A DNA stretch of 64,000 bases from a virus. The position numbers and the translations under genes were made by a program. The notes under the pieces are model-generated. The model was not told the origin of the DNA. It saw nothing but the letters and a program-made list of their open reading frames with translations, and did no database searches. This document shows, piece after piece, positions 7,471-57,100 of this stretch. Numbering within the stretch: position 1 is the stretch's first letter; each line of letters begins with the position of its first letter. The stretch covers positions 53,689-117,688 of IMG/VR virus record IMGVR_UViG_3300042541_001760; one strand, 5' to 3'.

Positions 7471-7870
7471 AAACTACTTTTTTTTCAAATTCTAAAACTA
7501 TATCTCTTTCATATAGTTTTTCTTTTATTGTTTTTTCATCCTCACCAAATCTAAAAACCAATCTTTTTTCAGTTTCAAAATTGGTATCAGAATCTTCGGA
7601 TTCCCAACCCAACGCAATTACATCATCAAGAGAATCTATCATAGAAAAAAAGTCAGAATCCTGAATTAGGGATAACTTAATATCCACACTTTTTAGAGTT
7701 CCGACTTTCTGTATAAATTCTATATCGGGAGCGGATGGATTACCGTTAGACGGTTTTGACTCCCATCCCTCTCCCCATATATCGGTTATTGTATCTGAAA
7801 AGATAAATTCATATATATTATCACCTTTATAATTAGGTCCTAAACCATTTATATAAATTAGATAACTCAT
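7460..7870 (-). CDS. Hypothetical protein
   Basis: 136-aa ORF overlapping both neighbours by 4-11 nt (translational coupling). Confidence 0.5.
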   Translation of the reverse strand: MSYLIYINGLGPNYKGDNIYEFIFSDTITDIWGEGWESKPSNGNPSAPDIEFIQKVGTLKSVDIKLSLIQDSDFFSMIDSLDDVIALGWESEDSDTNFETEKRLVFRFGEDEKTIKEKLYERDIVLEFEKKVVYEN

Positions 7871-9294
7871 AGAATCGCTCCGTCAGGTGTGATTTTAAAT
7901 TGTTTACCATTAACCTCAAAAACCAAATTTCTCTTATTAGTTTTACCGATTAATTCGGCTTTAGAATATCTTGTTATAAATTTCTCAGAAGTTACTTCTT
8001 GGTCAATTGATTCTGACAATCTCTTAACTTCTTTCATTTGTTTAACCTTATGAGTTTTTTTCTCAACAAATTTTCTAACTCCTCTTTCTTCGTTTAATCT
8101 TTTTTCGTTAGGTGATTCTTGAAAATATTTTGATAAAATCTTATCAACTTTTGATTCTGAGAAAATTTCATCAAAAATTTTACCCATTCCATCAGCGTGA
8201 TTATCTTCTAACATATCACCCATTTTACTTTTAATGAGTTCGCTATGTTTATTAGTAACTGCTTTGTTAAAGTCCATTTCCTCCATTGGGGATTTTGGGT
8301 GTCTTCTTCTTTTAGGTTCATCACTAAATCCTAAATCATAATCTCCGTCCATAGTTCCTTCCCATTCTTCGGACATTTCACCTTCAGGTAATTCTTCATC
8401 GCCCATTTCAGGTTCTTCCGGCATATCCATACCCGCATCATCCATTTCAGGTTCTTCCGGTATATCCATATCCTCATCACCCATATCTTCATTATCCTCA
8501 AATCTGGTCATAATCTCCTCAACATCCTCATCGGATAATTGACTTAAATCAAGAGCTGACAATATTGAGTTAATAACATATTTTGTGTCATCAGATGAAA
8601 TTGGTTCTTCACCTTGATTAAGTTTTCTAATTTTTTGACCTAACTTACCTGTTAGTTTTTGGATTGATTTAAAGGTAACCATACCTTCTTCACCTTCAGG
8701 TTCTCCGCCCATATCCATTCCTTCGTCACCCATATCCATACCTTCATCACCCATTTCAGGATCTTCCGGCATACCCATTCCTTCATCACCCATAGATGGG
8801 TCTTCAGGCATATCCATACCTGCGTCAGGCATAGGTGGCATATCAGTTGGTGCGGGTACGGGAGCTGGTGCGGGGGCAGGTGCTGGCATCGGCGGTGCTT
8901 CTACAGGTGCGGGTTTAGGAGTTTTTAATGTGAATTTTTTTTGTTCACCAAATAATGAAATATTTTCTTCATTACCAACCAAAGTATTAACTTCTTTTGT
9001 AATTAAGTTTAATCTCTTTAATGCTTGGGAATAAGAAGGGTAATACTTTCTATTCTGCATTGGTTCAAGATAATCCATATCGGATTCATTAATTGATTTT
9101 TTAATGACATATCCGTTCTTATCTCTTTCAATTTTGTATGTATTACCATCGGCTAACATTATTCCATATTCCGTGGATCTTACTTCATTAACAGGATTTG
9201 GAATGTTTTCCTTATAACGAGAAATTTCAATGATACGGTTTATTTTTTCCATACCTTCTAATCTTTCACTTCCTATTGGTTTTAATTTTCCCAT
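7867..9294 (-). CDS. Acidic Met/Gly/Asp/Glu repeat protein with poly(Pro-Ala) stretch
   Basis: 475 aa. Repeats PEDPEMGDEGMDMGDEGMDMGG and PMPAPAPAPAPVPAP. The same GDMGG/MGDEG repeat style occurs in the portal C-terminal tail. Confidence 0.55.
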   Translation of the reverse strand: MGKLKPIGSERLEGMEKINRIIEISRYKENIPNPVNEVRSTEYGIMLADGNTYKIERDKNGYVIKKSINESDMDYLEPMQNRKYYPSYSQALKRLNLITKEVNTLVGNEENISLFGEQKKFTLKTPKPAPVEAPPMPAPAPAPAPVPAPTDMPPMPDAGMDMPEDPSMGDEGMGMPEDPEMGDEGMDMGDEGMDMGGEPEGEEGMVTFKSIQKLTGKLGQKIRKLNQGEEPISSDDTKYVINSILSALDLSQLSDEDVEEIMTRFEDNEDMGDEDMDIPEEPEMDDAGMDMPEEPEMGDEELPEGEMSEEWEGTMDGDYDLGFSDEPKRRRHPKSPMEEMDFNKAVTNKHSELIKSKMGDMLEDNHADGMGKIFDEIFSESKVDKILSKYFQESPNEKRLNEERGVRKFVEKKTHKVKQMKEVKRLSESIDQEVTSEKFITRYSKAELIGKTNKRNLVFEVNGKQFKITPDGAIL

Positions 9295-9575: not shown

Positions 9576-11903
9576 TTAGATTTTGTTAGCAAATTCCTTA
9601 TAGAAATTTTTAAATATTTCTGAGTGGTCGTAACTATCCTTATCCGTACAAATAACTTTTCCTTTGTAGTTAGAATCGTCTTTATGGGTGCAGTACCATT
9701 TTAATACCTCCCTTGGGACATACCCTGGTGGTTTATTTCCCCAATTTTTCCAATTACATGTCATGTAAGTATTACTACCAAAATCTAAATTAATATATGG
9801 TGATTCTCCTTGTCCCTGACCTTCAGGTGAAGGGTCAATTAAACCCACAAATTTCATATTACTTCTTGGACCTACATAATCCCACATTTTCATACCTCCT
9901 TTAGAAAACCCGGCAATTGAGGTTACGGTCGCATTGTAATTATCTTTCACGTGCTTTATAGCCTCTTCAACAGAGGTTCCCCAATGAGTTATCACTACCA
10001 AAACTTTACCTTTAATTGGGTCAACTCCCGATCCGTAAAAACTTTCATTTAATGAAATCTGACCATTTTGATTAGAATGTAATCCCGCAAATAAAACGTG
10101 TGCTTCACCACCCTTAAAATTATCAGGTTTATAAACTAAGTAATTCTTAGACTTTCTTTTTTCGGTTGGTTGATTTTTATCTCCGATTGTGGATTCTTTA
10201 GATTTTACAGGTTTATTTTCTATCTTATCTATGTAAGGTTCTATATCTTCTGATTGGATATTTTTTTCTTTTAATTTTCCTAATAGAACTTTAACCATTT
10301 CAGGTGTCGCAACTGAATTTACTAAATATTCACCATTATATTTACCAATATATTTTTTATCAATTATAGTTTCAGGGTCAACGGCTACCCCATTTAATAT
10401 TACCTCAAAATGTAAGTGTGGATATGTGGAATTTCCTTTTTTTGATTTTTCATCTTTCTCCCCATTACAACCCCCCTCTTTACCACCGTTACATCCACCG
10501 GTTTTACCAATAATTTGACCTTGTGTTACCGTATCACCTTTTGAAACATCTATTTCATTACAATGACAATATTTTGTTTGATAACCGTCTGAGTGTTGTA
10601 TTAAAATATAACCTCCGCATTTACCAACACCAAAGGATGACCCTACCACTTTTCCGTCGGCGGGTGATTTTATCGTAGTATTTCTATCACTACGTAAATC
10701 AACACCATTATGTGGTCTACCTCCACGAGGTCCAAACTTTGAAATCACCACTAATGTACCATCCAATGGAGGTAAAATTTTTGATTGATTGTCAGTTTCA
10801 TCAGTTGATTCAGCTTTTTCAACTGCTTCTATATTCTCCTTCTTGAATTTTTCAACTTGTCCAGAGGTTTCAGGTCCATATAAACCATCAACACCGTGAT
10901 TTGGTAACTTATAACCTAATAGTTCCAACCCTATTTGTATCGACTCAACATTTTCTTGAAATGAATACTCACCTCTTTTTTGTTGGGATACAGGTTCTTG
11001 GATTGAATCTAAAGTTTTATAGAATTCGGAAACATCGTCACTAACTATGTCTGCTTTCTTTGGGTTATCAACCTTAACTTCACCTTCTTTATTTTTTTTA
11101 CCCGAAAATAAATTAGATAAAAAATCTCTTATTTTTCCTTTATTTTTTTCTTGTTCACCAATTAATTTTTGCTCCAATGACAATTCCCTATCGACCTTTT
11201 CTTTTTCAAAGTTGAATAGTTTTTCAATATACCCATTTCGTCTAAGGTATTTAAATACCAAATTTTCGTAGGATAATTCTCCACCACCCTCTAATCCGGA
11301 TTGTCTATATTTTTTAAGTTTATCTTTGAAACCGCCTAATAACTTTAAAGCAGCCTCTAAGTCCTTACCTTTAGCCGAATCAATAACCTCATCAATTTTT
11401 TCAGTCCATTGGTCAACTTTTGACATAAGAACTTCTTTATCGGCTTTAAAATCACCTTTTTTAGGTGGTGTTAACCATTTGTTATATATAACGGAATATA
11501 CCCCTGTTGAGAAGTGGGGTTCATTACTGTCCTGTAGATATAACTCAACGTCATAACCATAAATCTTTATATTATGGTCAGAGTTAAATAATGTTTTTTT
11601 TAATTTAAAAAGTTCTTTATAAAGGTCTAATTGTTCTTTTGGGAATTGTTCAAAATCCACAATTACGTGTAAATCAAAATCAGAGTATTTTGACCAATTA
11701 TAGTTAGCCATAGAACCTGTCATATGAACATCGGACACGATAATATCAATACCTAAAAATTCTATGAATTCATAAGCAATTTCTAATAACTTTTCTCTAA
11801 TTTCAGGTTTAAGTTTTGTCGACTTATTGTCCTTAACCCACACCTTTGGATTTAGTCCTTTTTTTAAATCAAAGCTTGATAAAATTTCACTATCCTTTTT
11901 CAT
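9576..11903 (-). CDS. Multi-domain cell-wall hydrolase: N-terminal minimal nucleotidyltransferase fold, PG-binding domain, M23 peptidase, C-terminal alpha/beta-hydrolase (GXSXG)
   Basis: 775 aa. Pol-beta-type nucleotidyltransferase signature TGSMANYNWSKYSDFDLHV (GS-x10-DxD). PG_binding_1-like IQIGLELLGYKLPNHGVDGLYGPETSGQVEKFKKEN. M23 motifs HNGVDL (HxxxD) and HLHFEV (HxH). C-terminal GFSKGG nucleophile elbow. Confidence 0.85.
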   Translation of the reverse strand: MKKDSEILSSFDLKKGLNPKVWVKDNKSTKLKPEIREKLLEIAYEFIEFLGIDIIVSDVHMTGSMANYNWSKYSDFDLHVIVDFEQFPKEQLDLYKELFKLKKTLFNSDHNIKIYGYDVELYLQDSNEPHFSTGVYSVIYNKWLTPPKKGDFKADKEVLMSKVDQWTEKIDEVIDSAKGKDLEAALKLLGGFKDKLKKYRQSGLEGGGELSYENLVFKYLRRNGYIEKLFNFEKEKVDRELSLEQKLIGEQEKNKGKIRDFLSNLFSGKKNKEGEVKVDNPKKADIVSDDVSEFYKTLDSIQEPVSQQKRGEYSFQENVESIQIGLELLGYKLPNHGVDGLYGPETSGQVEKFKKENIEAVEKAESTDETDNQSKILPPLDGTLVVISKFGPRGGRPHNGVDLRSDRNTTIKSPADGKVVGSSFGVGKCGGYILIQHSDGYQTKYCHCNEIDVSKGDTVTQGQIIGKTGGCNGGKEGGCNGEKDEKSKKGNSTYPHLHFEVILNGVAVDPETIIDKKYIGKYNGEYLVNSVATPEMVKVLLGKLKEKNIQSEDIEPYIDKIENKPVKSKESTIGDKNQPTEKRKSKNYLVYKPDNFKGGEAHVLFAGLHSNQNGQISLNESFYGSGVDPIKGKVLVVITHWGTSVEEAIKHVKDNYNATVTSIAGFSKGGMKMWDYVGPRSNMKFVGLIDPSPEGQGQGESPYINLDFGSNTYMTCNWKNWGNKPPGYVPREVLKWYCTHKDDSNYKGKVICTDKDSYDHSEIFKNFYKEFANKI

Positions 11904-11935
11904 TAACTAATAAATACTACAAAACATGTATTTAG

Positions 11936-12178
11936 TTAAAGTTTTTTATATGGGTGAACTTTTGCAATTTTTGAACTGAAGAATTTACCTTGAGATTCCG
12001 ACATTCTAAATTGAGTATATAATTGATGGGGTACATCTTGATACTCATATTTTAAACCATTATTAAACTCAACTAATAGATCCTTTGTTTCGGTATCATA
12101 TTCTGTGTGTTTAATATTTGACGAAGTAATATCATTAATTATTTTTGTTCCTATAATTTCTTCTTTTGTGATTGCCAT
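11936..12178 (-). CDS. KTSC-domain protein
   Basis: 80 aa. LLVEFNNGLKYEYQDVPHQLYTQFRMSESQGKFFSSKIA matches the KTSC domain pattern (F.nG..Y.Y..VP...Y......S.G.yF...I). Confidence 0.6.
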   Translation of the reverse strand: MAITKEEIIGTKIINDITSSNIKHTEYDTETKDLLVEFNNGLKYEYQDVPHQLYTQFRMSESQGKFFSSKIAKVHPYKKL

Positions 12179-12210
12179 AATTTTTTATTTAAAAAATAAA
12201 TACTAGTATA

Positions 12211-12242
12211 AAAAAGAAAACCCCTCTTTTGGGGAGGGGTTA
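12211..12242 (-). terminator. Rho-independent terminator (minus strand)
   Basis: CCCCTC-TTTT-GGGGAGGGG hairpin. On the minus strand it is followed by TTTTCTTTTT. Lies between two minus-strand genes. Confidence 0.55.
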
Positions 12243-12269
12243 TCAATTTACTTTTAGTAACAATAAAGT

Positions 12270-12705: not shown

Positions 12706-13077
12706 TTAAAGCAAAGATATCTTTTTCTTTCTCTCAATCTTTTTTTCATTAGGGATAAACACGCTTAATAACCCATCCTCAATAGTTGCTTCAAGTTTAG
12801 AGGTGTCAATATTTAATCCCAAATCATAAGAGAAGTGAACACTCTTAGTTTTATCACCACTTGATGATTTAATTACACGACTACCATCAATGGTTAAAAT
12901 TGTGTCATCAACATCAACTTTTAAATTTGACTTATTAAAGCCAGGGACGCTGAATACATAATAAGCCCCATCTTCGGTTTTATGAACATCATAGTCACTG
13001 ACATAATTTCTTCTGAATTTAGCATCAGTAAAGTCGTTTAGGATTGTGTCGAAAATTGATAAATTTCCTGTTTTCAT
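12706..13077 (-). CDS. Small heat-shock protein, Hsp20/alpha-crystallin family
   Basis: 123 aa. ACD-like core YYVFSVPGFNKSNLKVDVDDTILTIDG...ATIEDGLLSVFIPNEKK. Confidence 0.75.
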   Translation of the reverse strand: MKTGNLSIFDTILNDFTDAKFRRNYVSDYDVHKTEDGAYYVFSVPGFNKSNLKVDVDDTILTIDGSRVIKSSSGDKTKSVHFSYDLGLNIDTSKLEATIEDGLLSVFIPNEKKIERKKKISLL

Positions 13078-13230: not shown

Positions 13231-15273
13231 ATGAATGAGATAATGGACGGTGATGGACCTTCATCAAGAAAAAAAGGCGACAACGATAGTGGTACTCCTG
13301 TACTGGATAACTTCAGTAAAGATTTAAATAAATTGGCTGAGGAAGGTAAATTAGATTCAGTTATTGGTAGAGATAAAGAGATATTAAGAATTGCTCAGAT
13401 ATTATCAAGAAGAAAGAAAAATAATCCTATTATTATTGGAGAACCGGGTTGTGGTAAGACCGCAATTGTTGAGGGATTGGCAATGAAAATCCAACAAGGT
13501 GAATGTCCGAGAAATTTAGCGGATAAGAGAATTGTCCTGTTAGATATGACATCCATTGTTGCGGGAACAAAATACAGAGGTCAGTTTGAGGAAAGAATGA
13601 AAGTGATTATTGAAGAATTACAATCACATCCCAACATTATTATCTTCATAGATGAGATTCACACCATTGTAGGTGCAGGTAATTCATCAGGATCATTGGA
13701 CGCTTCAAACATATTCAAACCAGCATTGGCAAGAGGTGAGATTCAATGTATCGGAGCTACAACACTTGATGAATACCGTAAAAACTTTGAGAAAGACGGA
13801 GCGTTGGAAAGAAGATTCCAAAAAGTGGTGGTTGACCCTTCAACGAAAGAAGAAACTCTACAAATTCTAAAAAACTCAAAAGACAAATACGAGAGTTACC
13901 ATAAAGTTATTTTTAGTGACGAAGTATTAATCACTTGTGTTGATTTGGCGGACAGATATATTACCGATAGAGAGTTTCCCGATAAGGCTTTTGATATTAT
14001 AGATGAAGTTGGGGCAAGAAGTCAGGTGGATATTAAAATGCCTGAAGTTATTGAGAAATTGAAATTGGACGCAATTGATATCAAACAACAAAAGATTGAT
14101 GTTGTAAAGAAACAGAATTACGAACAAGCGGCAGAACTTAGAGATAAGGAGAAAAAAATTCTGAATAAACTTCACGTAGAAAAAATGAAGTTTGAAGAAG
14201 AAATGAATATCAATAAGAAAGAAGTTGAGATTGAATTGGTTTATGAAGTTGTATCCAATATGACAAAAATTCCTGTTGGAAAACTTAACATTGACGATTC
14301 AAAATCATTGGTTGATTTGGAGGTTAATATCGGATCGAAAGTTATTGGTCAATCTGAAGCGGTTTCAAAAATATCAAAAGCAATTAGAAGAAATAGATTA
14401 GGTATTAAAGACCCAAATAGACCCATAGGATCGTTTATCTTCTTAGGATCCACAGGTGTGGGTAAAACACACTTAGCCAAGCAATTGGCGAAAGAGATAT
14501 TCGGTAGTGAAGATTCTTTAATTAGAGTTGATATGTCCGAATATCAAGAAAAACACTCAATCTCTCGTTTAATCGGATCTCCTCCGGGATATGTTGGTTA
14601 TGATGAAGGTGGTCAATTAACTGAACAAGTTAAAAACAAACCATACTCCGTTATTTTATTTGATGAAATTGAAAAGGCAAATAAAGACATATTCTCAACT
14701 TTACTACAGGTATTGGATGATGGTCACCTTACAGATGGATTGGGAAGAAAAATCAATTTCAAAAATTGTCTTATCATTATGACATCAAATATTGGTGTTA
14801 AAAAATTACAAGATTTTGGGGCTGGTGTTGGATTCCAAACTAAGTCCTATGTTGAAGAAGAACAAAAACGAGACATCCTTAAAAAGGAACTTCAAAAATT
14901 CTTCGCACCTGAATTCCTAAACAGAATTGATGATGTGATAATCTTTAACACCCTAAAACAAGAACAAATTAACGAAATCGTTAAGATTGAACTTAATAAG
15001 TTATCATCAAGATTGACTAAAATCAAATACCAATTCAAATTTGAATCTTCGGTAACTGATATGATATCAAAAGTTGGTTTTGATGAAATGTATGGGGCTA
15101 GACCTTTAAAGAGGGCTATCCAAGATAAAATTGAGGATTATATTTCCGAGGAAGTTCTTAGAGGTGAACTTAAAACCGAAACACCTTATGTGGTTACGGC
15201 AGAGAATGACGTTATTATTATAACGGAAGAGAAAAAAGGAAAGAAGGGTAAAACAAAAAAGGAGGTTGAATAA
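13231..15273 (+). CDS. ClpC/ClpB-like double AAA+ chaperone ATPase lacking the N-domain
   Basis: 680 aa. D1 Walker A GEPGCGKTAIVEGLA and Walker B IIFIDEIHTIVGAG. Short UVR-like middle motif KQNYEQAAELRDKEKKI. D2 FLGSTGVGKTHLAKQLA...RVDMSEYQEKHSISRLIGSPPGYVGYDEGGQLTE...LFDEIEKA...LQVLDDGHLTDGLGR. Confidence 0.9.
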   Translation: MNEIMDGDGPSSRKKGDNDSGTPVLDNFSKDLNKLAEEGKLDSVIGRDKEILRIAQILSRRKKNNPIIIGEPGCGKTAIVEGLAMKIQQGECPRNLADKRIVLLDMTSIVAGTKYRGQFEERMKVIIEELQSHPNIIIFIDEIHTIVGAGNSSGSLDASNIFKPALARGEIQCIGATTLDEYRKNFEKDGALERRFQKVVVDPSTKEETLQILKNSKDKYESYHKVIFSDEVLITCVDLADRYITDREFPDKAFDIIDEVGARSQVDIKMPEVIEKLKLDAIDIKQQKIDVVKKQNYEQAAELRDKEKKILNKLHVEKMKFEEEMNINKKEVEIELVYEVVSNMTKIPVGKLNIDDSKSLVDLEVNIGSKVIGQSEAVSKISKAIRRNRLGIKDPNRPIGSFIFLGSTGVGKTHLAKQLAKEIFGSEDSLIRVDMSEYQEKHSISRLIGSPPGYVGYDEGGQLTEQVKNKPYSVILFDEIEKANKDIFSTLLQVLDDGHLTDGLGRKINFKNCLIIMTSNIGVKKLQDFGAGVGFQTKSYVEEEQKRDILKKELQKFFAPEFLNRIDDVIIFNTLKQEQINEIVKIELNKLSSRLTKIKYQFKFESSVTDMISKVGFDEMYGARPLKRAIQDKIEDYISEEVLRGELKTETPYVVTAENDVIIITEEKKGKKGKTKKEVE

Positions 15274-15287
15274 CCTCCTTTTTTTAA
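15255..15287. terminator. Bidirectional rho-independent terminator between convergent genes
   Basis: GGAGGTT-GAAT-AACCTCC hairpin flanked by an A-run upstream and TTTTTTT downstream. Confidence 0.55.
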
Positions 15288-16117
15288 AATGGACTATAAA
15301 TTTTATTAGGTTTCTCCTCTTTAAATTGGTGTTTGGTGTAACCCAATGATTCTATCATTTTTTTACCAACTTTGATACCATTGTAGACATCCTCAACCAC
15401 CACATATTCATTTGCGGTGTGGTAATCGTAGTACCCAATGGAGATATTGATACAAGAAAAATCAAAAGATTCTTTAAGAGCGTAAACATCGGTATAAGGG
15501 TGTGAGAAATATTTTAGTTTATCAGGAAAACTTTCAGTTAGAACTTTATCACATTCTTTAAAAAAGTCAGTCCGTCTGTCAAATAATGTTGTTCCCCAAC
15601 ATCTTTCAGTAACCATCCAATTTTCGGGGGCGTCGAACTGAATTGCGTAACCAACATTTGTAAAGAATGATTTGTCGGCTTTACGAGACCCGTGACATCC
15701 TGTTTCTTCAGATACAAAGAACGCCGCCTTTAAGTTGGGTAACTCTTTTAGTAATTCTAAACAAGCATAGACACCACACTTGTCATCACCTCCAATACCT
15801 GTAGGGTTTCCTTCGTTATTATACGCTTTTAGGGATAACTTAATTTCACCTTGAGCGTTTTCAAGTTGTTCTTCAACGACATTGATTGAGTCCATATTAT
15901 GAACCGTATCAGTGTGTGATACAACACAAGGGAACATAAACCCATTAGGTAAATCACCGGTTTGTTTGGTGGCATAAACATTAAGATGTTCATCCACCGT
16001 ATGGTCAATGTTGTTTTCCGTTAACCAATCAATAAGAAATTGAACCATCTGTTCTTCCTTATAAGTTTTACTTGGTACTGACAATACGTCTTTTAGTAAT
16101 TGATAATTTCTTTCCAT
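15284..16117 (-). CDS. M20/M28/M42-type metallopeptidase
   Basis: 277 aa. Metal-ligand motifs HTDTV, GGDDKCG and the catalytic Glu-Glu SEETGCHGS. Confidence 0.55.
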   Translation of the reverse strand: MERNYQLLKDVLSVPSKTYKEEQMVQFLIDWLTENNIDHTVDEHLNVYATKQTGDLPNGFMFPCVVSHTDTVHNMDSINVVEEQLENAQGEIKLSLKAYNNEGNPTGIGGDDKCGVYACLELLKELPNLKAAFFVSEETGCHGSRKADKSFFTNVGYAIQFDAPENWMVTERCWGTTLFDRRTDFFKECDKVLTESFPDKLKYFSHPYTDVYALKESFDFSCINISIGYYDYHTANEYVVVEDVYNGIKVGKKMIESLGYTKHQFKEEKPNKIYSPF

Positions 16118-18503: not shown

Positions 18504-18845
18504 TTAATAAAGATTAGTTATCCAGTTATATCTTGACTCAATCTTAGGTAAGTATCTATCTAATAAAAAATTATATATTTCATCAGACGGAAATTCGTCT
18601 TGACCCCAATTTGATAAATCTCCGTGATACTCGTCAATAATACCATTTATTATACGTCTTTTAAAATCATCAAATTCCATCCTATTACCATCTCTAAGTT
18701 CTCTTAAAAAAATATCAGTAACGTAATTTAAATTATCTAGTATGTCACTATCTAATGAACTAATATCAACTCTTCTACGTAGAAAAGAAGATTCATTAAT
18801 CCCCATCACTTCCTGTATCCTCTGTATATTTTCTTGTAGATTCAT
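18504..18845 (-). CDS. Leader-family protein (MNLQENIQRIQEVMG N-terminus)
   Basis: 113 aa. Conserved N-terminal 15-mer shared with 20289, 20605, 21462 and 22235. A TATAAATAT box abuts the start codon. Confidence 0.6.
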   Translation of the reverse strand: MNLQENIQRIQEVMGINESSFLRRRVDISSLDSDILDNLNYVTDIFLRELRDGNRMEFDDFKRRIINGIIDEYHGDLSNWGQDEFPSDEIYNFLLDRYLPKIESRYNWITNLY

Positions 18846-22840: not shown

Positions 22841-22850
22841 GTTTTCTATT

Positions 22851-22862
22851 AGTATTTATATG
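22851..22862 (+). promoter_or_regulatory. Putative -7 promoter box (AGTATTTATATG)
   Basis: 15 nt upstream of ATG 22877. Confidence 0.35.
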
Positions 22863-22876: not shown

Positions 22877-24331
22877 ATGAAAATATTAGTATCGGAAAGT
22901 CAATACAAAAGATTAGTTGAGAGTTTATTAGATGAATCCATTTTAATTATAGGTGATAGTCATAGCGTAGATGCAGGATTCACTTACTCAAGTTTATTAA
23001 AGAAAAAATTTTCGGATGTAAAAATATCAGCATCGGTTGGCCAAGGAACATCTTGGATGAAATCAGAATTAGCTAGAGAGTTAACCAAAAAACATTACGA
23101 TAAAGTTATAATTTGGGGTGGGAACAACGATATTGGTTCAACCTCCTCTATATCTGGAGCAATATCAAACATACAACAAATGGTTAATATGGTTAACTCA
23201 CAAGACGGTCAATCATATGTAATCATTGGTTTTGACCAAGAAGTTTTTACCAAAAAAGTAAAAAATAAAATGAGAGAAAGATATATAGATTTGCAAAAAC
23301 AGTTATCTAGTGAGATAAGTAATGCCGTAATAATTCCTGCCTTTGATATTGATAACTCTTACACATCAGATAATGTACACGGAAATAAGAGTGCTCACGA
23401 AAAAGTTTTTAGAACCGTTACGGAGTATCTACAAAAAACAACACAAAAAGAAAAACAAAAAGATGAAAGTAAAAATTCTGAAACGTTAATGTCAAGATTA
23501 GAAGATTATTTGGATTCTGGTTTAGAATTAGTTGCAAGAAAACGAGGTTCAATGGTTTATGAAAAAGAAGTTGAGGATATACAAACCGCTCTCCAATTTT
23601 TAGGGTTTTCTTTACCTAAGTGGGGTGTAGATGGAAAATTTGGGCCAGAAACAAAAAAAGCAACTGAAAACTTCCAAGAAGAAAATGATTTGGAAGTGAC
23701 AGGAATTTTTTCAATCAAAGATTTTGAAAAACTTATTGATGTTTTGGAATCAAAGGGTGTTACTGATGAAGATTTCATGAATGTTCAGAAAAACAAAACA
23801 GAAGAGTTATCATCAGATTTTGAATCGACGGATTTTGAAACAATTGAAAATTCTGGAATTCAAGTTAGTAAATACCCAAATGATATCGAAAATAGATTAC
23901 AGGATATTTTAGGTAAAGAAAAATTCAATATATTTGTTTCCAAGTGTCGAGGAATTGGGTTAGACCCTTTGATTGCAATTAGACAACTTTATACAGAATC
24001 TGTCGGTTTTAGTCCTGACGTTTTGACTTGTAAAAGAAAATCACCTGCGGGAGCCATGGGAATTGCTCAATTTATGCCGGGTACTTGGCCAAGTTATGGT
24101 AAAGGTAGTCCATGCAATGTCGATGACGCATTGGACGCTTATATTAGGTTTATGGATTATTTACTAAAAAGATATGAAGGTCGAGTAGATCTGGCAGTTG
24201 CGTCATATAATAGTGGTCCAAACTTAAATATATATAAGAAAACATATAACTCAAATACACCTTTCGCATCACTTAAAGGTAAAATACCAGGAGAAACATA
24301 TAAATACGCATCCACAATTCTACAAGCATAA
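22877..24331 (+). CDS. Three-domain lysin: SGNH/GDSL esterase, PG-binding domain, lytic transglycosylase (SLT)
   Basis: 484 aa. SGNH blocks IIGDSHS (I), IIWGGNNDIG (III) and DNVHGN (V). PG_binding_1-like IQTALQFLGFSLPKWGVDGKFGPETKKATENFQEEN. SLT motifs LYTESVGF (catalytic Glu), AMGIAQFMPGTW and VASYNSGP. The N-terminus MKILVSESQYKRLVESLLDES is leader type b. Confidence 0.85.
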   Translation: MKILVSESQYKRLVESLLDESILIIGDSHSVDAGFTYSSLLKKKFSDVKISASVGQGTSWMKSELARELTKKHYDKVIIWGGNNDIGSTSSISGAISNIQQMVNMVNSQDGQSYVIIGFDQEVFTKKVKNKMRERYIDLQKQLSSEISNAVIIPAFDIDNSYTSDNVHGNKSAHEKVFRTVTEYLQKTTQKEKQKDESKNSETLMSRLEDYLDSGLELVARKRGSMVYEKEVEDIQTALQFLGFSLPKWGVDGKFGPETKKATENFQEENDLEVTGIFSIKDFEKLIDVLESKGVTDEDFMNVQKNKTEELSSDFESTDFETIENSGIQVSKYPNDIENRLQDILGKEKFNIFVSKCRGIGLDPLIAIRQLYTESVGFSPDVLTCKRKSPAGAMGIAQFMPGTWPSYGKGSPCNVDDALDAYIRFMDYLLKRYEGRVDLAVASYNSGPNLNIYKKTYNSNTPFASLKGKIPGETYKYASTILQA

Positions 24332-26270: not shown

Positions 26271-26358
26271 CCATATACTATCTAAGAGATTAGCCCTGTT
26301 CTTTTTAAGGATGGGGTTTTTTATTTACATAATGTAGTATTTATTTAAAACACGAATT

Positions 26359-27489: not shown

Positions 27490-27810
27490 TTATTGTTTAA
27501 ATATGTTTACAAAACCTGTGATGGTTAGTGTTACACCAGCAACAAACATAATATTATTTGGTGTATTTAAAAAAATGTTAGGTTTAACGTAGGTTGAAGT
27601 GTATGAATTTTTAAAAGATGAGTAACTACTTACCCACTCTCCATCCGCCCTATTTTGGAGAATGGCGGCAGTTAATAAACTACCACCACTAACCGTTAGT
27701 ACCAAAGACACATTTTTGTTTTTTGAAACAGTCATATGTTGAGCCTCTGTGTTACCACAAAGACCCAACACTAACAACAAGACAAAAATAACTATTTTAA
27801 AGTTTTTCAT
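27490..27810 (-). CDS. Signal-peptide protein (possible lipoprotein/o-spanin-like)
   Basis: 106 aa. N-terminus MKNFKIVIFVLLLVLGLCGN with a Cys after the hydrophobic core. Confidence 0.4.
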   Translation of the reverse strand: MKNFKIVIFVLLLVLGLCGNTEAQHMTVSKNKNVSLVLTVSGGSLLTAAILQNRADGEWVSSYSSFKNSYTSTYVKPNIFLNTPNNIMFVAGVTLTITGFVNIFKQ

Positions 27811-28858
27811 ATTTCGGTTTGATTAATTTCCATATTATGGATGAATAATCTTTCTTGTCCCACATTGAGAACATAACCGAATGTAGTTCTTTCTTTATAT
27901 ATTTTTGAACGAACTCAGCAAATTCTTTCTTTGTGGGTTCAGGATAAACATCACCATACTTACCATATCTAAATCCGTCGTGATTTTTACCGCAATACTC
28001 AGATATTTGGAAATGATTGTATTTCAAATCTCTAGCATACACTTTTATCTTATGGAAAAACTCATCAGGGACATCTTTAAGTATTTCATTTATGTCATCA
28101 CCTGAACTCAATACATCCCAAACAGATGTGGTGGATACATTGGTCATTATTTTATGTAAACGAAGATACTCAGCACCTTTTATCTTCATTCGGTTACCAT
28201 TAGAGAATTTAACAACGAATCCCTCCTCATTACTATTTATCAAATCCTTCAAAGTGGAGTAATCACTGATGCCGTCATATTTTTTAACCAGTTTGAAACC
28301 TATATTGGATATTAGATTTTTATGTCTTATATCCTCGTCATCACCATCGTGTAATTTAACCTCATACCCTGTCTTGGTATTTATCATACCCAATAACACC
28401 AAATCTTCAAATGGGTATTTTACCACTATACGATTCTGGTTATATATGATTTCAAAAAGGTAAGTATAATCTTTATGAAGTTTATCAAAATCGTAGTTAA
28501 ACATCATCTCATACCCTTTAACCGCTTGATCGGAAGTAAATGACCCACGAGTTGCCATTATCCAACCACCTTCATAATAGAAGAATATACCCAAAGACCC
28601 ATCCATCTTTTCATAAACATCAAAATCTGAAGTTGGGGTATGTTTACCCTCATCCATATTAAAGAATTTCTTGAATGGTCTGGCAACGATATTTCCCTTA
28701 TCGTCAGTAACAAGACCGCGAGTTTGTAGGGTAACATCATTCCATAAACCTTCATATTGGACTTTCTCAGAATAGTTCCATATAGTCAAAGGGAGGGTTG
28801 GATGTACTTGTTTGTACACCAACCCGTCATCATAATATGTGTTAAGTTTATTCACCAT
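27797..28858 (-). CDS. ATP-dependent RNA ligase, T4 Rnl1-like
   Basis: 353 aa. Nucleotidyltransferase motif I EKMDGSLGIFF (KxDGS). Motif IV EEGFVVKF. Motif V lysines KIKGAEY. Confidence 0.75.
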   Translation of the reverse strand: MVNKLNTYYDDGLVYKQVHPTLPLTIWNYSEKVQYEGLWNDVTLQTRGLVTDDKGNIVARPFKKFFNMDEGKHTPTSDFDVYEKMDGSLGIFFYYEGGWIMATRGSFTSDQAVKGYEMMFNYDFDKLHKDYTYLFEIIYNQNRIVVKYPFEDLVLLGMINTKTGYEVKLHDGDDEDIRHKNLISNIGFKLVKKYDGISDYSTLKDLINSNEEGFVVKFSNGNRMKIKGAEYLRLHKIMTNVSTTSVWDVLSSGDDINEILKDVPDEFFHKIKVYARDLKYNHFQISEYCGKNHDGFRYGKYGDVYPEPTKKEFAEFVQKYIKKELHSVMFSMWDKKDYSSIIWKLIKPKYEKL

Positions 28859-31573: not shown

Positions 31574-32401
31574 TTAATTAATGTTATACATCATATTTGA
31601 CCCATTACCTGTCATTACACTTGGTAATGTTCCGTTCCACTTATCAAGATACATTTTCTTAAGTAGTTCAGGTGTCAAGTTACGTTGTTGTAGTTCATAA
31701 GCCTTAGCCTCTGATTGCGCCCGAATTACCATTTGTGCGGAGTCACCTCTTGCCACTGCGATTTTTTGGTTAGCCTGAGCAACTGAGATTTTAACCTTAT
31801 TTTCCTCAGTTTGTGCGTTCTGAACCGCCCGATTCTTTAGAGTAATTGACTCAACCAATGCCGGTGGTGGTGTCAGATTACTTGTTAATTGAGCCAATAG
31901 GAATCCTTTTGGTTTAACTTGAGCAATGAATCTCTGTCGTACTGTATTCTCAAAAAGTTGTCGATTCATTAGTAAACTATCGGGAGTAAAATCCCCCGCA
32001 GTTGAACGAAACGCTTCTAACATACAGGTCTTTAAGAATCCATCCTCAATTTCGGGTAGGTCTCGTCGGAACGTCTCAAAGATAGAACTTACCGAATCTG
32101 AAATTACACTATAGTTGATGGCGGGAATTGCAGTAAAGATAGTTCCACCCTTCATAGTTACCTCAATGGTGTCATACTCCTTGTGTTGTACATAAGTCGG
32201 CCACTCATATACTTGACTCATCCACGGAATATAGAATTGCCATCCCGTTACTAATTCTGTTTTACTAACACCTTTTTCAGATGCGGTGTTGTTTACTTTA
32301 ATACCTACGTGACCTGCGTCAATTCGCTCACAAGAAGCGGGAATAAACATTAAAAAGGATCCGAGGACTACGAACAATGCAATTATTTTAATTTTTGACA
32401 T
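31574..32401 (-). CDS. SPFH/band-7 (HflC/prohibitin-like) membrane protein
   Basis: 275 aa. N-terminal TM segment followed by ERIDAGHVGIKV...LVTGWQFYIPW... A C-terminal Ala/Gln-rich helix ISVAQANQKIAVARGDSAQMVIRAQSEAKAYELQ is typical of HflC/HflK. Confidence 0.8.
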   Translation of the reverse strand: MSKIKIIALFVVLGSFLMFIPASCERIDAGHVGIKVNNTASEKGVSKTELVTGWQFYIPWMSQVYEWPTYVQHKEYDTIEVTMKGGTIFTAIPAINYSVISDSVSSIFETFRRDLPEIEDGFLKTCMLEAFRSTAGDFTPDSLLMNRQLFENTVRQRFIAQVKPKGFLLAQLTSNLTPPPALVESITLKNRAVQNAQTEENKVKISVAQANQKIAVARGDSAQMVIRAQSEAKAYELQQRNLTPELLKKMYLDKWNGTLPSVMTGNGSNMMYNIN

Positions 32402-32627
32402 TTTGGTTTGGTTTGTTTTTATTGATTAGTGAAGTTAGAAAATTTACTGTTTGATAAAATGCGAATCCGATTATACATAACCCTATGATTACTGTGGGGG
32501 TATCAGGTTGGGTACATAGGTATACTCCCGATATGGCAATCAAACCTAATAGGATTAATTTTGAAATTGTGTCCCATAAGGGATCATTAATTAGTTTCAT
32601 ATAAATTGGTTTTAGATTGTTTGACAA
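32388..32627 (-). CDS. Small two-TM membrane protein, translationally coupled to the SPFH gene (possible holin or NfeD-like partner)
   Basis: 79 aa with two hydrophobic helices. 14-nt overlap with the SPFH gene. Confidence 0.45.
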   Translation of the reverse strand: MSNNLKPIYMKLINDPLWDTISKLILLGLIAISGVYLCTQPDTPTVIIGLCIIGFAFYQTVNFLTSLINKNKPNQNVKN

Positions 32628-34592: not shown

Positions 34593-35090
34593 ATGGAAAG
34601 GGTTTTAGTATTAAATTCGGATTATACCCCTCTGAACGTAACTACTATGATCAGAGGATTCAATTTGGTTAATAAAGGTAAGGCGGAGATTCTAAAGGCA
34701 GGAGATAAACCCATATTAACAGGAGAACAAACATTTACAAGACCCTTAATTATAAGGTTATTTACTTATATTAAATACAGAGTTAAAAATCTTAAAGTTA
34801 GTAGAAGTCGTTTATATAAAAGAGATGGTCATAAATGTTCATACTGTGGGTCACCAAAGAATTTAACAATAGACCACGTAATACCAAAATCTAAAGGCGG
34901 AACAAATAGATGGACTAATTTAATTACCTGTTGCGGGTCTTGTAACAGGAAAAAAGGTAACAAAACACCCGAAGAAGCGGGAATGACATTAAACATAATA
35001 CCATATGAGCCTTCATTATTTTCGGAGGTGTTTCACAATTCAATTGAAGCGGTATGGAACGAATTTCAAAAAACAATGGGTTTCAAATGA
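34593..35090 (+). CDS. HNH endonuclease
   Basis: 165 aa. CSYCGSPKNLTIDHVIPKSKGGTNRWTNLITCCGSCNRKKGN (HNH with zinc-binding Cys pairs). Confidence 0.85.
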   Translation: MERVLVLNSDYTPLNVTTMIRGFNLVNKGKAEILKAGDKPILTGEQTFTRPLIIRLFTYIKYRVKNLKVSRSRLYKRDGHKCSYCGSPKNLTIDHVIPKSKGGTNRWTNLITCCGSCNRKKGNKTPEEAGMTLNIIPYEPSLFSEVFHNSIEAVWNEFQKTMGFK

Positions 35091-37630
35091 AAAAACTACT
35101 TATATCACTTAATTTAATATTACTTTCGTTTGTTGGGTTCTCCCAAAATGATTGTATGGGATTTCAAAGTTCGATTGTTAATCCCTTACCTGTTGGTGGG
35201 GGTTATGCTCCCGGAACTGTGGTTCAATATTGTGTTACATACAATAATTGGAATACTAATTTAGGTGCTAATTGGTGTGAAGGATTTAACATTACAATCG
35301 GACCTGGTTGGGTACCGGGTTCAATAACTTCAGTAACCCTACCAAATAACTTAAATGGTGGAAATGGTCAATGGTTGTGGGTTCCGGGGACATTTAATGG
35401 AGATCCAGGTTCATCAGGTGGTGCGGGAAATAACTTTGGACCGGGGTTCTTTTTTGATGAAGATAGTGATGGTATAACTAATAATGATTGGGGTGATTTT
35501 GGAACAGGTCCTTGGACTTTTTGTTTTAGTGTTACGGCAGGCGCGGTGGCAGGAACATCATTATCTTTACAGGTCTCACCCGTTAGTGATGGGTATGCCG
35601 GAAGTTGGGGTAACGCAGGGTGTAACGGAGAATATCAATATCAATTATCACCCGGTAGTACGGTATTAGGTTGTATTGTTCCACCTCTTGTAACACAATC
35701 ATCAGTTACCGACGCTACTTGTAGTGGATTCGCTGATGGATCCTTTAATGTTGTGGGGTCAAATGGGGTCTCTCCTTACACTTATTATGTAAATGGTGTC
35801 GTAACACCAATGCCTGTAAATAATGTCCTTGCGGGGGTTTATGTGGTGTCTTGTGAAGATGATAATGGGTGTGTTAGTTTACCAATCAATGTTACCGTGG
35901 GTGAAAACACAACGGTGGTTAATAATACCTCACAATTACAAGATAATGTTTGTTTTGGGGAATCCAATGGTAGTTTTACAATAAGTTCTGTTAATGGTTT
36001 ATTACCTTACACATATACCTTAAACGGTGGTTCAAATAACACGGGAACATTCACGAACTTAACCGCAGGAAATTATGTTGTAAATGTTTCGGATGATAAT
36101 GGTTGTAATACCAATCACAATGTAACTATAACCGAACCAACCCAACTAACAAACACGATACCCGTTATAACTGACATTGATTGTTTCGGAAATACTAATG
36201 GAACAATATCGGTTACCGCAAATAACGGAACACCACCTTATATATACACCTTAAATGGGGTAACAAATAACACAGGTAGTTTTACAAACTTGGGTGCGGG
36301 TACTTACTCTATGGATATCACCGACGATAACGGTTGTCAGATAATCATCCCAAGTATTGTTGTGTCAGGTCCGGCTCAACCATTACAAGGTAATCTATCT
36401 ACGGTACAACCAACTTGTTTTGGGTATTCAGATGGGTCAATATCGTCAGTTGTTATTGGTGGAACTCCTCCATATACTTATCTTTGGAATAACTTACAAA
36501 TAACGTCACTAATAACCAATTTATCTTCGGGGTGGTACCAAGTTGTGGTAACTGACGATAATCTTTGTCAGACAACATTAACTCATCAATTGGGTCAGCC
36601 TATGAGGATTGATTTAACTGGTATTAATTCAGAGGTTATTTGTTTTGGTGAGGATGTTTACATATCGGTTAGTCAGATAAATGCCGTTACACCATATAAT
36701 ATTGTTTGGGCTAATTCAGTAAACGCAACAACTAACAATAATGATATTTGGGTTGTTCCCCCATCCGATGTAACTTATACATCAACACTAACTGATAATA
36801 ATGGTTGTATGGCAACACATAATTTTAATGTTACTGTAAATCCATTACCTGACCCATCCTTCACCCAAAGTGATATAACAGGATGTAATCCCAAGTGTAT
36901 TGATTTCTCAATTATAAACCCTAACCCTAATTATATTTACGATTGGACTATGGGTACTGGATCTGATCGTAGTGGTGACATCATTAAATATTGTTATCCT
37001 ATGGATGGTACCTATGATGTCAGAGTAATTGCCACCACAAATTTGGGATGTAAGGATACCTTATTTAAACCTAATCATATTATAATTAATCTGTCACCTG
37101 TTGCTCAATTTTCAATATCACCTGAGAGTGTAACTGACATTATGTCACCTTATTTTGAATTTGGTAACCTATCTAAGGACGCGATGTCATATTTTTGGAG
37201 TTTTGACGATTCTCAGACATCAATAGATGAAAATACCGAACATACTTATATTTCTCCTGGTGAGTATTGCGTTAAATTAATTGCCACCACAACTTTTAGT
37301 TCGGGAATACCAACTTGTGTTGATTCTATTATTAATTGTGTCACCATTAATCCATTATCAGTTTTATATATACCAAATGCGTTTACACCAAATGGTGATA
37401 ATACCAATGATTACTTTTATGTTAGTTCGTCAAGGATATATGATTATCATTTAACAATTTATAATAAGTGGGGTACTAAAATATTCCAAACATACGATTT
37501 GGATGCCACTTGGGACGGTACTTATGGTACAAGTATTGTAGAGGATGGTGTGTATTCTTATTTTGTGAGTTATAGGGATGTGGAAATGAGAAAATACGCA
37601 AAAAACGGTACGTTAACTGTATTAAAATAA
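35087..37630 (+). CDS. Secreted cell-surface adhesin-like protein: signal peptide, 4x SprB-type repeats, 2x PKD domains, type-B T9SS C-terminal domain (CHU_C)
   Basis: Start placed at MKKLLISLNLILLSFVGFSQ (signal peptide). The track ORF begins 11 codons earlier. Four repeats of the form NG..PYTYTLNG...TGTFTNL.AGNY...DDNGC. PKD-like segments YDWTMGTGSDRSGDIIKYCYPMDGTYDVRVIATT and FWSFDDSQTS...HTYISPGEYCVKLIATT. The C-terminus IPNAFTPNGDNTNDYFYV is the gliding-motility-associated/T9SS type-B CTD signature. Confidence 0.8.
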   Translation: MKKLLISLNLILLSFVGFSQNDCMGFQSSIVNPLPVGGGYAPGTVVQYCVTYNNWNTNLGANWCEGFNITIGPGWVPGSITSVTLPNNLNGGNGQWLWVPGTFNGDPGSSGGAGNNFGPGFFFDEDSDGITNNDWGDFGTGPWTFCFSVTAGAVAGTSLSLQVSPVSDGYAGSWGNAGCNGEYQYQLSPGSTVLGCIVPPLVTQSSVTDATCSGFADGSFNVVGSNGVSPYTYYVNGVVTPMPVNNVLAGVYVVSCEDDNGCVSLPINVTVGENTTVVNNTSQLQDNVCFGESNGSFTISSVNGLLPYTYTLNGGSNNTGTFTNLTAGNYVVNVSDDNGCNTNHNVTITEPTQLTNTIPVITDIDCFGNTNGTISVTANNGTPPYIYTLNGVTNNTGSFTNLGAGTYSMDITDDNGCQIIIPSIVVSGPAQPLQGNLSTVQPTCFGYSDGSISSVVIGGTPPYTYLWNNLQITSLITNLSSGWYQVVVTDDNLCQTTLTHQLGQPMRIDLTGINSEVICFGEDVYISVSQINAVTPYNIVWANSVNATTNNNDIWVVPPSDVTYTSTLTDNNGCMATHNFNVTVNPLPDPSFTQSDITGCNPKCIDFSIINPNPNYIYDWTMGTGSDRSGDIIKYCYPMDGTYDVRVIATTNLGCKDTLFKPNHIIINLSPVAQFSISPESVTDIMSPYFEFGNLSKDAMSYFWSFDDSQTSIDENTEHTYISPGEYCVKLIATTTFSSGIPTCVDSIINCVTINPLSVLYIPNAFTPNGDNTNDYFYVSSSRIYDYHLTIYNKWGTKIFQTYDLDATWDGTYGTSIVEDGVYSYFVSYRDVEMRKYAKNGTLTVLK

Positions 37631-48953: not shown

Positions 48954-48997
48954 AATATTTTTTTTAACAATAAATATAAGCGTAGTATTTATATATT

Positions 48998-51794: not shown

Positions 51795-52013
51795 TTATTT
51801 ATTATCATCGTTTTCTTCCACGACAAGTTTATCCGAGTGAATATGAACCCAGATATCCCAAATAAAGAAATAAAGGAACCATTGAATTTTTGATAATTCA
51901 AATTCGGTTGGGTTACTTAAATTCATAAATAAATAATATAAAACGTACCCACCCGCAACTATTTTTGATAATCCTAATATTATCCCAAATATTTTTTTTA
52001 GAATCTCGTTCAT
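51795..52013 (-). CDS. Small two-TM membrane protein
   Basis: 72 aa with two hydrophobic segments. Confidence 0.35.
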   Translation of the reverse strand: MNEILKKIFGIILGLSKIVAGGYVLYYLFMNLSNPTEFELSKIQWFLYFFIWDIWVHIHSDKLVVEENDDNK

Positions 52014-57074: not shown

Positions 57075-57100
57075 ATAAATACTATATAAAACAAAGTTAT

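Follow-up and report, generated by a model that had tools for sequence, protein, structure and literature searches.

Proteins that combine several disparate domains and are predicted to be injected into the host along with DNA have been described by Iyer, Burroughs, Anand, de Souza and Aravind (2017; PMC5512222), and in the parts of that paper drawn on here both pol-beta nucleotidyltransferases (NTases) and peptidoglycan hydrolases appear among their domains. The gene considered here lies in a stretch of viral DNA (IMG/VR record IMGVR_UViG_3300042541_001760, positions 53,689 to 117,688; 64,000 nt, hereafter the window), and encodes a 775-aa protein in which an NTase is followed by a peptidoglycan-binding domain, an M23 metalloendopeptidase and an alpha/beta-hydrolase. 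The original prediction of this open reading frame (ORF) and of its four-domain composition holds in all parts: the ORF is real, on the minus strand, with an ATG start. Its framing as a lysin with an unexpected NTase has to be reversed, as the NTase is the conserved core of both the protein family and its genomic slot, and the hydrolases variable accretions. The features of the gene are as follows (AF2, AlphaFold2 model; conservation figures refer to the best 120 of at least 687 metagenomic homologues).

9576..11903 (-): whole gene, 775-aa NTase - PG_binding_1 - M23 - alpha/beta-hydrolase protein (ORF list; ATG start; stop codon 9576-9578)
11169..11903 (-): pol-beta-type NTase module, aa 1-245 (PHROG 36119, Pfam, AF2, DrrA profile match, Foldseek)
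11712..11717 (-): G63-S64 of the hG[GS] motif (98% conserved)
11673..11681 (-): D75-F76-D77, metal-binding DxD in strand beta-2 (both Asp 99% conserved)
11544..11546 (-): E120, candidate third carboxylate in strand beta-3 (99% conserved, within predicted strand 117-125)
11154..11183 (-): end of the NTase module, aa 241-250, LSLEQKLIGE (LS[LI]xE plus a small residue in most homologues)
10836..10955 (-): PG_binding_1 (PF01471), aa 317-356 (Pfam E 4.8e-5, 23.9 bits against a cut-off of 23)
10374..10715 (-): M23 metalloendopeptidase, aa 397-510 (Pfam PF01551, E 8.7e-25, 87.2 bits against a cut-off of 28.7)
9579..10148 (-): alpha/beta-hydrolase (serine esterase-like), aa 586-775 (AF2 fold, conserved elbow; no Pfam family)
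9903-9905, 9834-9836 and 9624-9626 (-): candidate triad S667, D690 and H760, respectively (alignment and AF2)

The resemblance to the polyvalent proteins, as they are presented in those parts of PMC5512222, lies in the joining of disparate domains in one polypeptide, in pol-beta NTases predicted to modify proteins, in the wall-breaching domains, in the existence of solo versions of the effector domains, and in a proposed processing by peptidases. The NTases described there are minimal, occur mostly in Firmicute conjugative elements, and are fused to ArdC-N, whereas the one found here belongs to a family of ~245 aa, NTase plus helical bundle, restricted to large phages. The combination of M23, PG_binding_1 and alpha/beta-hydrolase does not appear in the passages drawn on, nor does the term "M23". 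According to Pfam and PHROG the present protein has no zincin-like metallopeptidase (MPTase) domain; a separate S77 protease is encoded nearby in relatives. Finally, the polyvalent proteins are predicted to be injected; the tie of the present protein to the virion is indirect, through synteny with head and packaging genes.

Capsid-internal proteins with wall hydrolase domains are a second point of comparison. T7 gp16 is such an ejection protein. In cyanopodophage A4, gp28 (PDB 9K2V; PMC12002296) is a large capsid-packaged protein with M23 and lytic transglycosylase domains, in which the catalytic residues are conserved, and is thought to digest host peptidoglycan at infection (PMC12002296). 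Both differ from the present protein in being parts of a podophage ejectosome, with long helical bundles and without an NTase, PG_binding_1 or esterase domain, and sequence similarity to A4 gp28 is confined to the M23 domain (E 0.044). The phage represented by the window is probably a myovirus, because of its T4-type portal and protease.

Residues 1-245 form a pol-beta-type NTase with an intact predicted active site, which is apparently catalytically competent. Its core occupies approximately aa 30-150 and is followed by a four-helix subdomain (aa 156-245). The GS-x10-DxD signature that first drew attention to the protein is confirmed at aa 62-80 (TGSMANYNWSKYSDFDLHV), where G63-S64 and D75-F76-D77 are separated by ten residues. 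PHROG 36119 ("unknown function") matches aa 11-243 with E 1e-44. The Pfam NTP_transf_2 (PF01909) match to aa 56-103 (E 5.4e-4, 20.7 bits) falls just under the cut-off of 21, which is exceeded by four homologues from other contigs (22.5, 25.6, 25.9, and 26.6 bits); Polbeta and MTPAP-like (poly(A)-polymerase palm) are weaker Pfam matches in the same region. NCBIfam has no model for this NTase, and the RlaP family, a companion of phage RNA ligases, gave no match in either Pfam or NCBIfam.

The homologues are only 35-60% identical, yet they keep the GS, the DxD and the third carboxylate, stand-alone forms included. G63, S64, D75, D77, and E120 are conserved at 98-99%, and residues of the helical half are likewise conserved (K102, K103, K195, R200, E209, E213, N214, K218, R221, R222, and K228). 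The AF2 model, made from a 30-sequence alignment (pLDDT 90, pTM 0.79), has a helix at 33-50, a strand at 56-62 ending in the GS, a strand at 75-82 starting with the DxD, a helix at 89-109, a strand at 117-125 containing E120, and then two further strands and four long helices. This alpha-beta-alpha-beta-alpha-beta-beta-beta order, with T62-G63-S64 directly after strand 56-62, agrees with the canonical pol-beta NTase topology, with its motifs in the right places. A fold check over aa 1-150 and a check on the conservation of the acidic residues (~99% kept) had been proposed with the original prediction as ways to refute it, and neither of them does.

When the family profile is compared with all PDB sequences, there is one significant relative, the AMPylation domain of Legionella DrrA/SidM (3NKU, E 2.9e-4; also 6YX5), with the GS...DxD motifs aligned. 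The alignment begins in the helix that precedes beta-1, takes in G-S-x10/11-D-x-D, and extends into helix alpha-3; it spans only ~80 residues of the NTase core, and the helical subdomain is unmatched. In Foldseek the identity to DrrA is 26% over 100 columns. Unlike the phage NTase, DrrA is secreted by a bacterium as an effector, and its targets are Rab GTPases of eukaryotes. A Foldseek search of the PDB gave almost exclusively NTases: AAD(9) at the top (E 1e-3, probability 0.92), then ANT(6), AadA, CCA-adding enzymes, DrrA, LinB, MNT antitoxins, GlnE, terminal uridylyltransferases (TUTases), and poly(A) polymerases. TM-scores were low (~0.25), and the long four-helix extension dominates the structural matches. 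The antibiotic nucleotidyltransferases among these (AAD(9) 6XZ0, ANT(6) 8VXB, AadA, LinB; also ANT(4')) resemble the phage module in length (~250 aa) and in having an N-terminal pol-beta NTase and an all-helical domain, but the TM-scores of ~0.25 mean that the arrangement of the subdomains differs, and by sequence they give no significant match. Nothing leads one to expect an antibiotic as the substrate of an NTase encoded in a phage head module.

Since its closest solved sequence relative is the protein AMPylase DrrA, it is plausible that the NTase nucleotidylates a host target, one of the options in the original prediction. The same relationship weakly favors protein AMPylation over modification of nucleic acid ends. 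A LicD-type phosphotransferase or a periplasmic NTase role was also considered and rejected, there being no profile or structural match and no nucleotide donors in the periplasm.

The family to which the protein belongs was defined by a full-length search, which yielded the 687 or more metagenomic proteins. All of the best 120 have the NTase at the extreme N-terminus, usually followed by PG_binding_1 and then by variable hydrolases (M23, VanY, Phage_lysozyme2, Amidase_2, GH19, glucosaminidase, or a beta-lactamase-like domain); lengths among these 120 range from 429 to 1141 aa, and the contigs reach 328 kb. The exact 775-aa protein is present in public metagenomes, on contigs of up to 261 kb. 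Many members are labeled "MepM/NlpD ... / predicted nucleotidyltransferase" by the JGI pipeline. The 1141-aa member (P0020, contigs to 95 kb) carries four wall-active domains behind its NTase: beta-lactamase-like PF13354, M23, VanY, and Phage_lysozyme2.

In deposited phage genomes the NTase is found only as a stand-alone gene of ~240 aa. The carriers are Lak megaphages, uncultured phages of 630-640 kb, a subset of Synechococcus myoviruses (where one homologue is annotated as "aminoglycoside nucleotidyltransferase"), and Maribacter phage Molly. Among 185,579 species genomes scanned, only 16 loci turned up, all on contigs of metagenome-assembled or single-amplified genomes (MAGs or SAGs); those examined carry phage genes. 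On three gut- and rumen-derived phage-like contigs (L018 3727-6531, L021 4936-6753, and L019 5285-6577), the NTase is the C-terminal part of proteins of 430-935 aa whose N-terminal regions contain a "YHGT" motif. Those of L018 and L021 have PARP and Tpt1/KptA matches below the Pfam cut-off (ADP-ribosyltransferase-like, or ART-like); in the L019 extension Pfam finds nothing. At a further locus (L017) the NTase module is fused to DUF5661.

The gene is four genes from TerL and five from the portal gene, on the same strand, so that its placement in a structural/packaging block stands. Beginning with a ClpB-like ATPase on the opposite strand, the order is Hsp20, a 129-aa protein, KTSC, the NTase fusion, and proteins of 62 aa, ~470 aa (acidic), ~136 aa, ~260 aa, and ~415 aa, then TerL, Portal_T4, proteins of ~241 and ~150 aa, and Peptidase_S77. 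The window and five fetched loci share this order, and four of the five are on contigs of 56, 195, 244, and 328 kb. The nearest neighbors in the window are:

11936-12178 (-): KTSC-domain protein, 80 aa, directly upstream; chaperone-like cluster
12706-13077 (-): Hsp20 small heat-shock protein; chaperone-like cluster
13231-15273 (+): ClpB/ClpA-like double-AAA+ ATPase, 680 aa; chaperone-like cluster
7867-9294 (-): acidic protein, 475 aa, two genes downstream of the NTase fusion with the 62-aa ORF between

The KTSC/Hsp20/ClpB cluster immediately upstream of the NTase gene is kept in the relatives examined, and so is the position of the acidic protein, also where the NTase stands alone. At three loci (L010, L011 on a 248-kb contig, and L012) the slot holds an NTase without any recognized hydrolase domain, of 255 aa in L011, 263 aa in L012, and 427 aa, with an unassigned C-terminal extension, in L010. 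Around it, all three loci have homologues of ClpB, KTSC, the acidic protein, p136, and p417. Of the remaining neighbors, TerL showed up at two loci (L010 and L011), and portal and Hsp20 at one (L011). The ART-like fusions of L018 and L021 are likewise followed by homologues of the acidic protein and p417, and in L018 by TerL. Since the slot holds an NTase alone or an ART-NTase in distant relatives, the NTase is its constant core, and hydrolases or ART-like domains are accretions to it.

Two close relatives have an extra 541-aa PG_binding_1 + M23 gene between the 129-aa gene and KTSC (L001 3296-4921 and L002 4314-5939), which the window does not, and L005 and L007 have further small M23 genes near the slot; wall hydrolase genes are gained and lost around the NTase locus. 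The acidic protein, whose acidity is extreme, has a PAPAPAPAP tract and (M/P)(G/E)DEGMD-type repeats, and matches nothing in Pfam or PHROG; its role might be that of a scaffold, of an internal head protein, or of a DNA mimic.

As for the central part of the protein, the PG_binding_1 match is marginal, covering only profile positions 3-40 of 57; most family members have it among their precomputed matches. The M23 domain has its full site (H398xxxD402 in HNGVD 398-402, H447, and H496-L-H498), unlike the degenerate M23 domains of EnvC/NlpD-type activators, and a Gly/Cys-rich insertion precedes the HxH. Among PDB sequences the region matches 9gy1, DipM, ShyA, LytM, and lysostaphin. It is also matched by PHROG 1067, "minor head protein," and several PHROG "endolysin" families match the M23 and PG_binding_1 regions.

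The C-terminal domain has a GFSKGG nucleophile elbow at aa 665-670 and a confident AF2 model (pLDDT 89.6). In the model S667 is at a strand-helix elbow, D690 after the next-but-one strand, and H760 in the loop preceding the last helix; this Ser-Asp-His order of the candidate triad is canonical for the alpha/beta-hydrolase fold. Pfam has no family for the domain (only DUF915 at E 0.032, 14 bits against a cut-off of 22), and NCBIfam no model. A word-indexed search with it gave three proteins only, and an exhaustive HMMER search of 1.84 billion cluster representatives was used instead. This found just 151 relatives, nearly all matching at or near their C-terminus. Within the protein family, the closest relative (P0001) has the same domain with VanY and Phage_lysozyme2 inserted ahead of it, and ~15 further family members have the domain at ~34% identity; more distant members are joined to M23 or VanY, and some form the ends of proteins of 1.8-2.2 k-aa. 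Invariant in the alignment are HVLFxG, TH, GFSxGG, GLIDPS, and KWYC, and a His in the last loop. Among the relatives covering each site, the triad Ser is kept in 145 of 146, the Asp in 144 of 144, and the His in 56 of 60. Because the NTase residues are kept at 98-99% in the 120 homologues and the hydrolase Ser and Asp at these rates, the motif matches in the 775-aa protein are not due to chance.

Judged by its relatives, the C-terminal domain represents a new and small subfamily of serine esterase-like hydrolases, one specific to proteins that hydrolyze peptidoglycan. It shares its fold, GxSxG elbow, and Ser-Asp-His order with solved esterases (FrmB/esterase D, 7L0A; CE1 feruloyl/acetyl-xylan esterases; Antigen 85), but identity to these is 12-15% at most; the phage domain is compact (~190 aa), has no lid, and, unlike them, is always C-terminal to peptidoglycan peptidases. 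Mycobacteriophage LysB, as a phage esterase in cell-envelope breakdown, offers a functional likeness, although its mycolyl-arabinogalactan target is absent from Bacteroidota. With low confidence, the substrate might be guessed to be an ester-linked wall substituent, with O-acetyl groups, for example, being removed.

The reading that we prefer, which we hold tentatively and as possible rather than probable, is that of a virion-delivered "polyvalent" entry protein, a phage-specific NTase with an accreted wall cassette, in a lineage of 195-328 kb T4-type Bacteroidota phages. The fusion would be made late, alongside the head and packaging genes, then packaged, and released at infection, and the S77 prohead protease may cut it behind the NTase module, after the LS[LI]xE. 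Bound to the sacculus, the wall cassette would open it locally: M23 would cut peptide cross-links, and the esterase would take off an ester-linked substituent of the wall or envelope. The NTase would end up in the cytoplasm and there transfer a nucleoside monophosphate (NMP), probably AMP, to a host or phage target.

Several observations suggest such a protein. The cytoplasm is the only compartment with nucleoside triphosphates (NTPs), and the hydrolases work solely on the wall. No hydrophobic segment, signal peptide, transmembrane segment, or membrane anchor is found in the 775 aa (maximum 19-residue Kyte-Doolittle mean 1.53). An NTP-using domain and wall hydrolases on one polypeptide without a signal peptide would therefore act in different compartments, and a two-compartment polypeptide matches the signature of the injected polyvalent proteins, as given in the parts of PMC5512222 cited above. 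Delivery by the virion is also suggested by the constant N-terminal module with its swappable cargo, ART-like fusions included; by the fixed slot in the head module, which persists even with a stand-alone NTase; by the precedent of a capsid-internal M23 ejection protein in cyanophage A4 (gp28), together with the PHROG 1067 match; and by the recurrence of the esterase on M23 and VanY proteins, those of 1.8-2.2 k-aa being too large for endolysins. We infer virion association and ejection from the head/packaging synteny, the lack of an adjacent holin, and analogy.

Processing is suggested by the sequence at the end of the NTase module. T4 gp21 and other T4-type prohead proteases prefer (L/I)xE. 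In 80% of the 120 homologues there is an [LI]xE at the aligned NTase boundary, and sequence conservation stops right after it; the sole other conserved [LI]xE is at position 39, inside the NTase fold. With a T4-type S77 protease encoded nearby in relatives, the LS[LI]xE can be put forward, as a hypothesis only, as a possible prohead-protease cleavage site.

A number of points weigh against delivery by the virion. [LI]xE is common in K/E-rich sequence, and in the clade of the present protein the boundary motif is displaced to I248-G249-E250 (LSLEQ...LIGE). No T4-style capsid-targeting sequence is evident at the N-terminus, where the next [LI]xE (residue 35) already belongs to the fold; residues 2-9 are helical in the AF2 model, at lower confidence (mean pLDDT 80 for residues 1-10). 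T4-type myoviruses normally breach the wall by means of a baseplate-hub lysozyme, and a hydrolase that leaves the inside of the head by way of the tail tube might not encounter peptidoglycan at all. In large phages the lysis genes are often dispersed, which makes a missing adjacent holin weak evidence. In the T4-like cyanophage DSL-LC02 the stand-alone NTase is beside the DNA polymerase, in the replication/early region and not in the head module (an Hsp20 gene is three genes away), and in Maribacter phage Molly the homologue is among hypothetical genes, adjoining a NUDIX gene. In addition, tblastn of the whole protein against deposited phage genomes (INPHARED) gave matches to the N-terminal module or to M23 alone and never to the fusion, and the esterase domain alone had no match in the same genomes.

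The strongest of the alternatives, which we nevertheless think unlikely, is that the protein is a modular endolysin, or one of several, which accumulates late in the cytoplasm and reaches the wall via holin lesions, the NTase acting before lysis in the producing cell. The NTase could then be an independent late enzyme by translational fusion, or an ATP-dependent safety catch until the cell is de-energized. Modular endolysins of large Gram-negative phages, such as KZ144 and EL188, classically join PG_binding_1 to a catalytic domain and lack a signal peptide; the PHROG "endolysin" matches agree with this, as does the quick swapping of hydrolase types, which is typical of endolysins, and the cyanophage stand-alone NTase among replication/early genes implies a role inside the infected cell. 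One argument against it is that there is no adjoining holin- or spanin-like ORF: between ~7 and 13 kb on the coding strand no small transmembrane (holin-like) or spanin-like ORF was seen, the nearest candidates being at 32388-32600 and 51795-52013. This, together with another candidate lysin at 22877-24331, argues for entry over lysis. The gene is moreover tied to the head/packaging module over large evolutionary distances, even without a hydrolase; the NTase is elsewhere fused to ART-like effector domains, which would be out of place in an endolysin; the phage has other peptidoglycan hydrolases, and its relatives extra M23 genes; and at 775-1141 aa, with up to four catalytic domains, the proteins would be very large.

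Alternatively, the NTase might add nucleotides to the ends of RNA or DNA rather than act as a protein AMPylase (e.g., in tRNA 3'-end repair after host anticodon or CCA nucleases, or in altering or shielding the termini of the packaged genome), with the hydrolases merely co-delivered or co-expressed; this we consider decidedly unlikely. CCA-adding enzymes, poly(A) polymerases, and TUTases are among the Foldseek matches, in line with the weak MTPAP-like Pfam matches, but of the solved proteins only DrrA, a protein AMPylase, is significantly related in sequence (E 2.9e-4), and the best Foldseek matches are small-molecule ANTs. The invariant basic residues of the helical subdomain (K195, R200, K218, R221, R222, and K228) and the position of the slot next to TerL and portal would suit a nucleic acid substrate. 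NTases are used in RNA repair by jumbo phages (PMC7824862), and the present phage, like that of L007, encodes a T4 Rnl1-type RNA ligase (27797-28858); this ligase is, however, 16 kb away and unlinked in the other relatives fetched, and the NTase has no RlaP match. Some homologues are fused to Tpt1/KptA-like domains, but these matches, like those to PARP, are under the Pfam cut-offs.

A more specific form of the virion-delivery reading, to which we give a slim chance, would make the NTase a pre-made, virion-borne anti-defense enzyme, freed of the hydrolase cassette by the prohead protease and injected with the DNA, that AMPylates a host immunity protein and so neutralizes it in the first seconds after entry, before any phage gene is expressed. 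One candidate target is a HEPN-type RNase, the kind of toxin that MNT antitoxins act on in this manner; another abortive-infection effector is also possible. The hydrolase and ART accretions would in that case be further entry and takeover tools on the same packaging module.

Degenerate pseudo-enzymes normally lose their catalytic residues. A catalytically silent NTase fold, serving as a structural or packaging adaptor that recruits cargo (as in MuF-toxin fusions) or as a nucleotide-sensing regulator, might be suggested by the constant N-terminus with variable C-terminal cargo in a head slot, which recalls the MuF-based delivery mentioned in PMC5512222, by the long four-helix extension that dominates the structural matches, and by the sub-threshold Pfam score of the present protein, but is scarcely credible given a predicted fold whose GS, DxD, and third carboxylate are kept at 98-99% across these divergent homologues, stand-alone forms too, with several of them exceeding the curated Pfam threshold; the "inactive scaffold" option of the original prediction is argued against by the same evidence.

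Upstream of the gene is a promoter-like motif, TAGTATTTAT, of which there are six exact copies in the window:

11910..11919 (-): TAGTATTTAT, 7 nt upstream of the ATG of the NTase fusion
12196-12205 (-): exact copy
22850-22859 (+): exact copy
26335-26344 (+): exact copy
48983-48992 (+): exact copy
57075-57084 (-): exact copy

All six are 0-25 nt upstream of a same-strand start codon (ATG), and the genes behind them include the NTase fusion, the KTSC gene, and the SGNH-PGB-SLT gene described below. Copies with one mismatch precede starts at 18845 (-), 38329 (-), 51753 (-), and 58797 (+). If at most one mismatch is allowed, the count of matches is 32, where 19.7 +/- 4.4 would be expected, and the motif is probably a phage promoter element. 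The T4 late-promoter sequence TATAAATA was also tried, and is not significantly enriched (24 matches against 15.4 expected, with 24 reached in 3 of 100 shuffles); its intergenic matches mostly read TATTTATA on the coding strand. Between the 129-aa and KTSC genes, at ~12215-12245 (-), there is a GC-rich hairpin (CCCCTCCCC aaaaga GGGG) with a run of T behind it, which resembles an intrinsic terminator and has TAGTATTTAT directly after it.

Further genes of the window are:

22877-24331 (+): SGNH-PGB-SLT protein, 484 aa (GDSL/SGNH-like, 27.7 bits, below cut-off; PG_binding_1, E 7e-11; SLT, E 2e-8)
42319-43767 (-): 482-aa protein, C-terminal PG_binding_1, no recognized catalytic domain
35054-37630 (+): 858-aa protein with SprB repeats, PKD domains, and a CHU_C type-IX-secretion sorting domain
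27797-28858 (-): T4 Rnl1-type RNA ligase
54924-55970 (-): IMPDH/GMP-reductase-like protein
15284-16117 (-): M20/M42-like peptidase

The first of these is a second fusion of esterase, peptidoglycan-binding, and wall-hydrolase domains in the same phage, and could be the real endolysin or another virion lysin. The CHU_C protein, together with the Maribacter and Flavobacteriaceae relatives, points to a Bacteroidota host, and its sorting domain, an export signal specific to Bacteroidota, suggests that this phage protein may be displayed on the host surface. Megablast of window positions 1-25000 against 50,697 phage genomes gave no match, and therefore no close cultured relative is usable for annotation or proteomics. 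Literature searches found no paper describing an NTase-endolysin fusion, and the "moraphage" paper (PMC12619734) does not mention one.

The superfamilies of all four parts are thus known, as is the theme of disparate domains on an entry or lysis protein. New are a widespread uncharacterized NTase family, the finding that it forms the constant part of a head slot in giant phages, and an unclassified esterase subfamily. The constant attachment of this esterase to peptidoglycan peptidases points to an ester-linked modification of the wall or envelope that phages must remove. The swappable partners (M23, VanY, amidase, GH19, and lysozyme) make up a natural library of wall-degrading cassettes tuned to various hosts, marine Bacteroidota among them, which is of interest to enzybiotic engineers. 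The NTase family itself, large and restricted to phages (at least 687 metagenomic members, PHROG 36119), repeatedly captures effector domains. Should its members be injected, the family would correspond to T4 Alt, with nucleotidylation as its chemistry, and would give access to the earliest steps of host takeover in uncultured jumbo phages; were the anti-defense role true as well, giant phages would have a new and widespread family of injected nucleotidylating effectors, like T4 Alt but acting by NMP transfer.

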